This document shows positions 11,764 to 11,934 of a DNA stretch of 64,000 bases, in pieces. This stretch comes from Escherichia coli (GTDB lineage Bacteria; Pseudomonadota; Gammaproteobacteria; Enterobacterales; Enterobacteriaceae): NCBI RefSeq assembly GCF_030013205.1, contig NZ_CP122648.1; one strand, written 5' to 3'. A program made the translations under genes and the position numbers. Below the pieces are notes generated by a model, which ran no database searches, had not been told where the DNA came from, and saw only the letters and a program-made list of their open reading frames with translations. Each line of letters opens with the position of its first letter. The first letter of the stretch is position 1.

Positions 11764-11934
11764 AAATGTATCTACAATTATTCTGCAATTATAGCGTTGA
11801 TGTTGGAAATAGCATCACGTTTCGAATAATCAACCATGAAATTGACAATGAGTAAGTTGGACTTGATTCATCCAATAGAATTTCTCGCCTGACATGGCAC
11901 ACTAAACACCTCGCTGTCGGGTAATGACTCCAAC

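Follow-up and report, generated by a model that had tools for sequence, protein, structure and literature searches.

An IS1-end-like 11-mer beside an IS1 copy in Escherichia coli belongs to the native spacer upstream of brnT

Upstream of the toxin gene brnT, in a 64,000-nucleotide stretch of Escherichia coli DNA (the window), the 11-mer AGTAAGTTGGA faces the end of an IS1 copy and matches part of its terminal repeat. Comparison with loci that lack IS1 at this site shows that the segment carrying the 11-mer is native DNA that varies among lineages and predates the IS1 junction. The best explanation, which we hold with considerable confidence, is that the 11-mer is ordinary spacer DNA upstream of brnTA, that it resembles the IS1 core by chance, and that it had no part in the IS1 event. 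The earlier note had described it as the reverse complement of the IS1 repeat core, about 60 bp outside IS1 and facing it, and a pattern search confirms this: the plus-strand 11-mer is the exact reverse complement of the inverted-repeat core at 11929-11939, its end lies 58 bp from the IS1 end (11920), and the two stand tip to tip. The only other occurrence in the window is that minus-strand copy within the IS1 terminal repeat. The surroundings also proved to be as described, with the brnT upstream region on one side, an IS1 with both ends intact, and the Immigration Control Region (ICR) missing. The neighbouring IS1 end, called the left end, is intact and does lie on the left in window coordinates, but it is the IRR by convention because insA sits at the far end (Table 1).

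Table 1. Positions of the 11-mer and of the features around it in the window
Feature	Position	Strand	Remarks
brnA (antitoxin)	11160-11462	-	Pfam BrnA_antitoxin PF14384, E 2e-17; RefSeq annotation
brnT (type II toxin)	11449-11736	-	Pfam BrnT_toxin PF04365, E 4e-24; RefSeq annotation of identical loci
Native A+T-rich spacer (28-37% G+C)	11737-11919		Between brnT and, if IS1-free, the divergent Mrr-type restriction gene
11-mer AGTAAGTTGGA	11851-11861	+	Reverse complement of IS1 inverted-repeat positions 10-20; native intergenic DNA
Supposed continuation cttgattcatcc...	11862-11875	+	No significant similarity to the outer IS1 terminus
IS1 copy, 768 bp	11920-12687	-	Both terminal repeats intact; ends GGTAATGACTCCAACTTACTGAT and GGTAATGCTGCCAACTTACTGAT
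IS1 IRR	11920-11942	+	Distal to insA; holds the true copy of the 11-mer at 11929-11939
IS1 IRL	12665-12687	-	Next to insA
Duplicate of the yghX 3' end, yghX-yghW spacer and yghW codons 1-18	12688-12957	+	

The evidence that the segment is native comes from genomes in which IS1 does not interrupt it. In the window, IS1 cuts the spacer at 11919/11920. A megablast search with the 481-bp query 11440-11920 against 5426 complete E. coli genomes finds this segment in 2111 of them, with at least 99% identity in 1091. A query spanning the spacer-IS1 junction (11800-11980) matches over its whole length in 1112 genomes, about a fifth of the 5426. In 881 genomes there is full coverage of the corresponding IS1-free junction, taken from strain EcN as 81 spacer bases followed by 100 bases of the Mrr-type gene; in 1112 further ones the 81 spacer bases alone are covered, which gives 1993 matching genomes with one place each. 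EcN is identical to the window over 11839-11919, including the 11-mer, and the alignment stays colinear up to base 11919. Past that base EcN reads ttaagggattaccGTGAAAAAC..., the start of a gene for a 388-aa Mrr_cat restriction endonuclease, and the order beyond the spacer is Mrr-type gene, hsdM, hsdS, hsdR, symE, yjiS, yjiR, rpn and mdtM. This ICR is colinear, with no IS1 annotated between the EcN spacer and mdtM. Occurrence of the sequence upstream of brnT in genomes lacking a nearby IS1 had been named in advance as the result that would refute the idea of a relic, and 881 genomes show it, with no IS1 at this site.

The same arrangement extends beyond E. coli. An exact 24-mer scan of one genome per species across 100,044 species, with either A or G accepted at base four of the 11-mer, matches a single species, represented by Escherichia albertii NBRC 107761; the scan demands exact identity, and more diverged orthologues would escape it. 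This genome has the same spacer next to brnT and, beyond it, the Mrr-type gene and two open reading frames at the positions of hsdM and hsdS in EcN, and the IS1 repeat core is absent from the 6.2 kb around the locus. All brnT-bearing genomes sampled have the segment with the 11-mer. A blastn search of plasmids gives no sign of the spacer on mobile DNA of other species, the hits being four E. coli records only (99-100% identity, 22-834 kb in size).

The match to IS1 varies among IS1-free loci. Base 11854 is A in the window and G in most of the IS1-free lineages sampled. Among six IS1-free haplotypes, only EcN has the perfect 11-mer AGTAAGTTGGA (11/11), four read AGTGAGTTGGA (10/11; E. albertii NBRC 107761 and E. 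coli strains WP3-W18, 20 and A24), and E. coli E189 reads TGTGAGTTGGA (9/11). The perfect 11-mer is thus one allele of a drifting non-coding site, probably made by point mutation. With E. albertii as the outgroup, the IS1-identical allele is most simply read as derived, a polarity that recombination around the ICR could blur.

Counts of expected matches place the resemblance in proportion. The 11-mer itself is expected 0.01 times in the window. The two IS1 repeats together hold 23 distinct 11-mers, for which 0.69 exact matches are expected across 63 kb, so the match as such is unremarkable; the window contains one exact 11-mer match, plus 10-mer matches at two other loci. What is unusual is the closeness to IS1: within 100 bp of the element, chance would supply just 0.0022 exact 11-mer matches to the repeats, and this figure counts against coincidence.

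Beyond the 11 bases, the likeness stays at the level of chance. Compared in register, 16 of the 23 positions of the IS1 repeat agree, and three other sites in the window match the 23-bp end at 16, 17 and 18 positions. The match extends inward to 15 of 17 bases (TCCAACTTACTcATtGT), whereas only three of the outer nine repeat bases agree and the terminal GGTAATG of IS1 is not present beside the 11-mer in this comparison. The partial similarity once thought to continue past the 11-mer does not hold up: apart from the in-register 3/9, a gapped alignment of cttgattcatcc with gtcattacc places 7 of 9 bases, which 14.6% of 12-mers drawn at random from the window also achieve. A remnant of an IS1 end was defined by the terminal GGT(A/G)ATG with about 20 or more of the 23 repeat positions, and by absence from orthologous sites that the element never entered; the 11-mer region reaches 16 of 23, and it is present in the 881 E. 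coli genomes and in E. albertii. IS1-interior sequence does not adjoin the 11-mer either, as judged by aligning the 300-bp neighbourhoods of the empty sites to the whole of IS1 on both strands. The best local scores are 24 for EcN and 21 for E. albertii, compared with a mean of 21 (sd 2.2) for random 300-bp segments, 13% of which reach at least 24 and 54% at least 21, and the top local alignment is the 17-base match itself.

Under the preferred reading of chance resemblance, an existing likeness would have been sharpened by one base difference, A in place of G at 11854, within one set of E. coli lineages. An IS1 end would later have joined the spacer at 11919/11920, 58 bp from the 11-mer, and about 11 kb to the right of the junction (the Mrr-type gene, hsdMSR, symE, yjiS, yjiR and rpn) is missing; the 11-mer is assumed to have had no part in this event. 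The junction itself is best attributed to an IS1-mediated adjacent deletion, because a target duplication is lacking and all IS1-bearing genomes are without the start of the Mrr-type gene. No 8-9 bp duplication surrounds IS1 in the window, where the flanks read ctcgctgtcg / IS1 / cggattcca, which fits a deletion or recombination after insertion and not a simple insertion. Among the 1993 genomes, none combines IS1 at 11919/11920 with the first 100 bp of the Mrr-type gene, so formation of the junction and loss of the ICR flank appear to be coupled, as expected for an adjacent deletion. All 1112 IS1 junctions lie at one nucleotide and therefore probably go back to one event, so that target choice was observed just once.

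The closeness of the two sequences raises the further question of whether the native 11-mer helped to attract IS1. InsA or the InsAB' transposase might bind the 11-mer weakly, perhaps together with AGTCATTACC, and so raise the local rate of attack by an IS1 end, in which case the junction would have been targeted; we consider this unlikely. Read in reverse complement, AGTCATTACC gives the outermost 10 bases of IS1, and it lies at +28 to +37 past the insertion point in IS1-free genomes, within codons 5-8 of the Mrr-type gene (positions 622-631 of the fetched E. albertii locus); it is deleted from the window. It is on the strand of the 11-mer, in the order found in a real IS1 end, 85 bp away. 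With at most one mismatch, a 111 kb background contains no match to the inner 11-mer, ten to the outer 10-mer and no pair of the two. This same-strand pair across the insertion point speaks for targeting, as do the distance to IS1, which chance would seldom produce, the inward extension of the match described above, and the confinement of the IS1 junction to the lineage with the perfect 11-mer allele. Published work also deals with IS1 insertion specificity and with a hotspot that interacts with IS1 proteins (Zerbib et al. 1985, pmid 2997452; Matsutani 1997, pmid 9126837).

Several observations weigh on the other side. There is one event only, with every one of the 1112 junctions at the same nucleotide, and the probabilities were calculated post hoc. 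No sampled haplotype combines a perfect 11-mer with a perfect 10-mer: the outer 10-mer is perfect in haplotypes with the G allele, and EcN reads AGTTATTACC. EcN-type genomes carry the perfect 11-mer, and 881 of the 1993 copies are uninterrupted, while all interrupted copies break at 11919/11920. IS1 is reported to favour A+T-rich and regulatory DNA (PMC12903888), a preference that already fits a divergent spacer of such low G+C content. The more specific proposal that the two half-end mimics, at -59 to -69 and +28 to +37, formed a decoy for IS1 proteins that steered the IS1 end to the edge of the ICR and set the breakpoint of the ICR loss strikes us as slightly less probable still. If true, targeting of this kind would show end-like DNA guiding the choice of an IS1 target in nature. 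The insertion hotspots of the element reportedly resemble its own ends. Guidance of IS1 by such DNA is an old idea, and the locus would add no new principle.

Descent from an older IS1 or IS1-family element, whose right end was left in the brnT spacer before E. coli and E. albertii diverged and has nearly eroded, is very improbable. AGTAAGTTGGA and AGTCATTACC are oriented and ordered like the parts of an IS1 right end, but the pieces are 85 bp apart instead of contiguous, the outer one consists of codons of the Mrr-type gene, and to the left of the 11-mer there is no similarity to the IS1 interior. A relic should decay away from IS1, yet it is the derived allele that comes closer to IS1 and the outgroup state that is further from it. 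The segment is moreover native and uninterrupted in the 881 E. coli genomes with an IS1-free site and in E. albertii, and it occurs in every brnT-bearing genome sampled, with no empty site seen. Least credible of all is a scar of the rearrangement that removed the ICR, such as a fragment of a second IS1 left by recombination between two copies, for which closeness alone speaks, along with the facts that the ICR is indeed missing and that IS1 has no target duplication: the sequence is unchanged in genomes that keep the ICR and have no IS1 at this position, and therefore predates the rearrangement. Of the origins suggested in the earlier note, it is thus the fallback of chance resemblance that the IS1-free brnT loci support.

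Comparison with known systems points the same way. The 11-mer shares 11 contiguous bases with the IS1 terminal repeat of about 23 bp, in right-end orientation, but unlike that repeat it lacks GGTAATG and an adjoining IS1 interior, is present at IS1-free orthologues and is polymorphic away from the IS1 sequence. Similar to solo IS ends or MITE-like remnants, it is a short, isolated IS-end match near a full copy; unlike them, it is present at empty sites and has no terminus. The junction, in an A+T-rich divergent regulatory spacer with an end-like sequence near, recalls the insertion preferences and hotspots of IS1 (pmid 2997452, pmid 9126837), although it is a single natural event. Intact IS1 ends, the lack of a duplication, a flank conserved in 1112 genomes and the loss of about 11 kb also agree with the adjacent (replicative) deletion whose mechanism is given by Turlan and Chandler 1995 (PMC394650); this likeness concerns IS1 and not the 11-mer, and a simple adjacent deletion leaves the 270-bp yghX-yghW patch of the window unexplained. 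The 11-mer in itself matters little, and a precise description of the locus is its by-product. It serves as an example that short matches to IS ends beside an IS element need a check of empty-site orthologues before they are called relics.

The genes next to the spacer form a BrnTA type II toxin-antitoxin pair, with brnT followed by brnA, a 14 bp overlap between them (11449-11462) and yjiA to the left of brnA. Consensus scans of 11650-12000 and of the IS1-free EcN spacer reveal no promoter or terminator over the 11-mer. Two weak promoter-like sites lie on the plus strand, TTGCCA-17-AAAAAT (11739-11767) and TTGGAA-16-AATAAT (11803-11830), which is no more than expected given that shuffled sequences yield 1.0-1.3 such sites. 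If the second were used, transcripts of the Mrr-type gene in IS1-free genomes would carry the 11-mer in their 5' leader. The plus strand also has a perfect -35 hexamer, TTGACA, at 11842-11847, three bases before the 11-mer; it has no acceptable -10 element at 16-18 bp, and strain A24 reads ATGACA in its place.

Closer to brnT, 16 bp upstream of its start codon, a perfect 12-bp palindrome, TTGTATATACAA, occupies 11752-11763 and is invariant across three aligned sequences. This palindrome is a candidate operator for BrnA or BrnTA, and the control region of brnT likely lies around it, nearer to brnT than the 11-mer. In WP3-W18 an 11-bp deletion between CAATTAT repeats falls just past the palindrome, and brnT is annotated there as a partial pseudogene. 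For QDFD216, an IS1-bearing E. coli, the annotation gives a frameshifted brnT, and brnA is shortened, so in some strains the toxin-antitoxin pair beside IS1 is decaying.

The IS1 copy has the features of the family: a length of 768 bp, imperfect repeats of about 23 bp, and insA followed by insB' in the -1 frame. The insA gene (12357-12632, minus strand) encodes the N- and C-terminal Pfam domains of InsA. A stop codon (TAG, 12145-12147; VVV*MTDGW) lies within the insB' frame, and the copy is therefore probably non-autonomous. RefSeq labels the same copy 'IS1 family transposase; programmed frameshift; internal stop' and also 'frameshifted; internal stop'.

At least two derived forms of the junction exist, one with an IS1-bounded inversion and one with a yghX'-yghW'::mdtM patch. 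E. coli 720632 has this left junction too, followed by a yjiJ'-mdtM block that is inverted and bounded by a second, inverted IS1 (fetched-locus positions 875-8648), with yjiJ split and mdtM retaining a normal 5' end; IS1 IRL abuts the native rpn-mdtM spacer there. This strain represents the plain deletion form with a later IS1-bounded inversion. For the window, a simple deletion was considered and set aside when the right flank of IS1 did not align to the rpn-mdtM spacer of EcN. The flank is instead the 270-bp patch, about 97.7% identical to the K-12 yghX-yghW locus; it runs in frame into mdtM, with the join at the 7-base microhomology CATGCCG (12951-12957). One-sided homologous exchange within IS1, together with an illegitimate join at the microhomology, would explain the patch. 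The extra yghX-yghW copy occurs in about 670 E. coli genomes, and the true yghX is uninterrupted at its own place in 5414 of the 5426. MdtM of the window accordingly has the yghW upstream region and a chimeric N-terminus.
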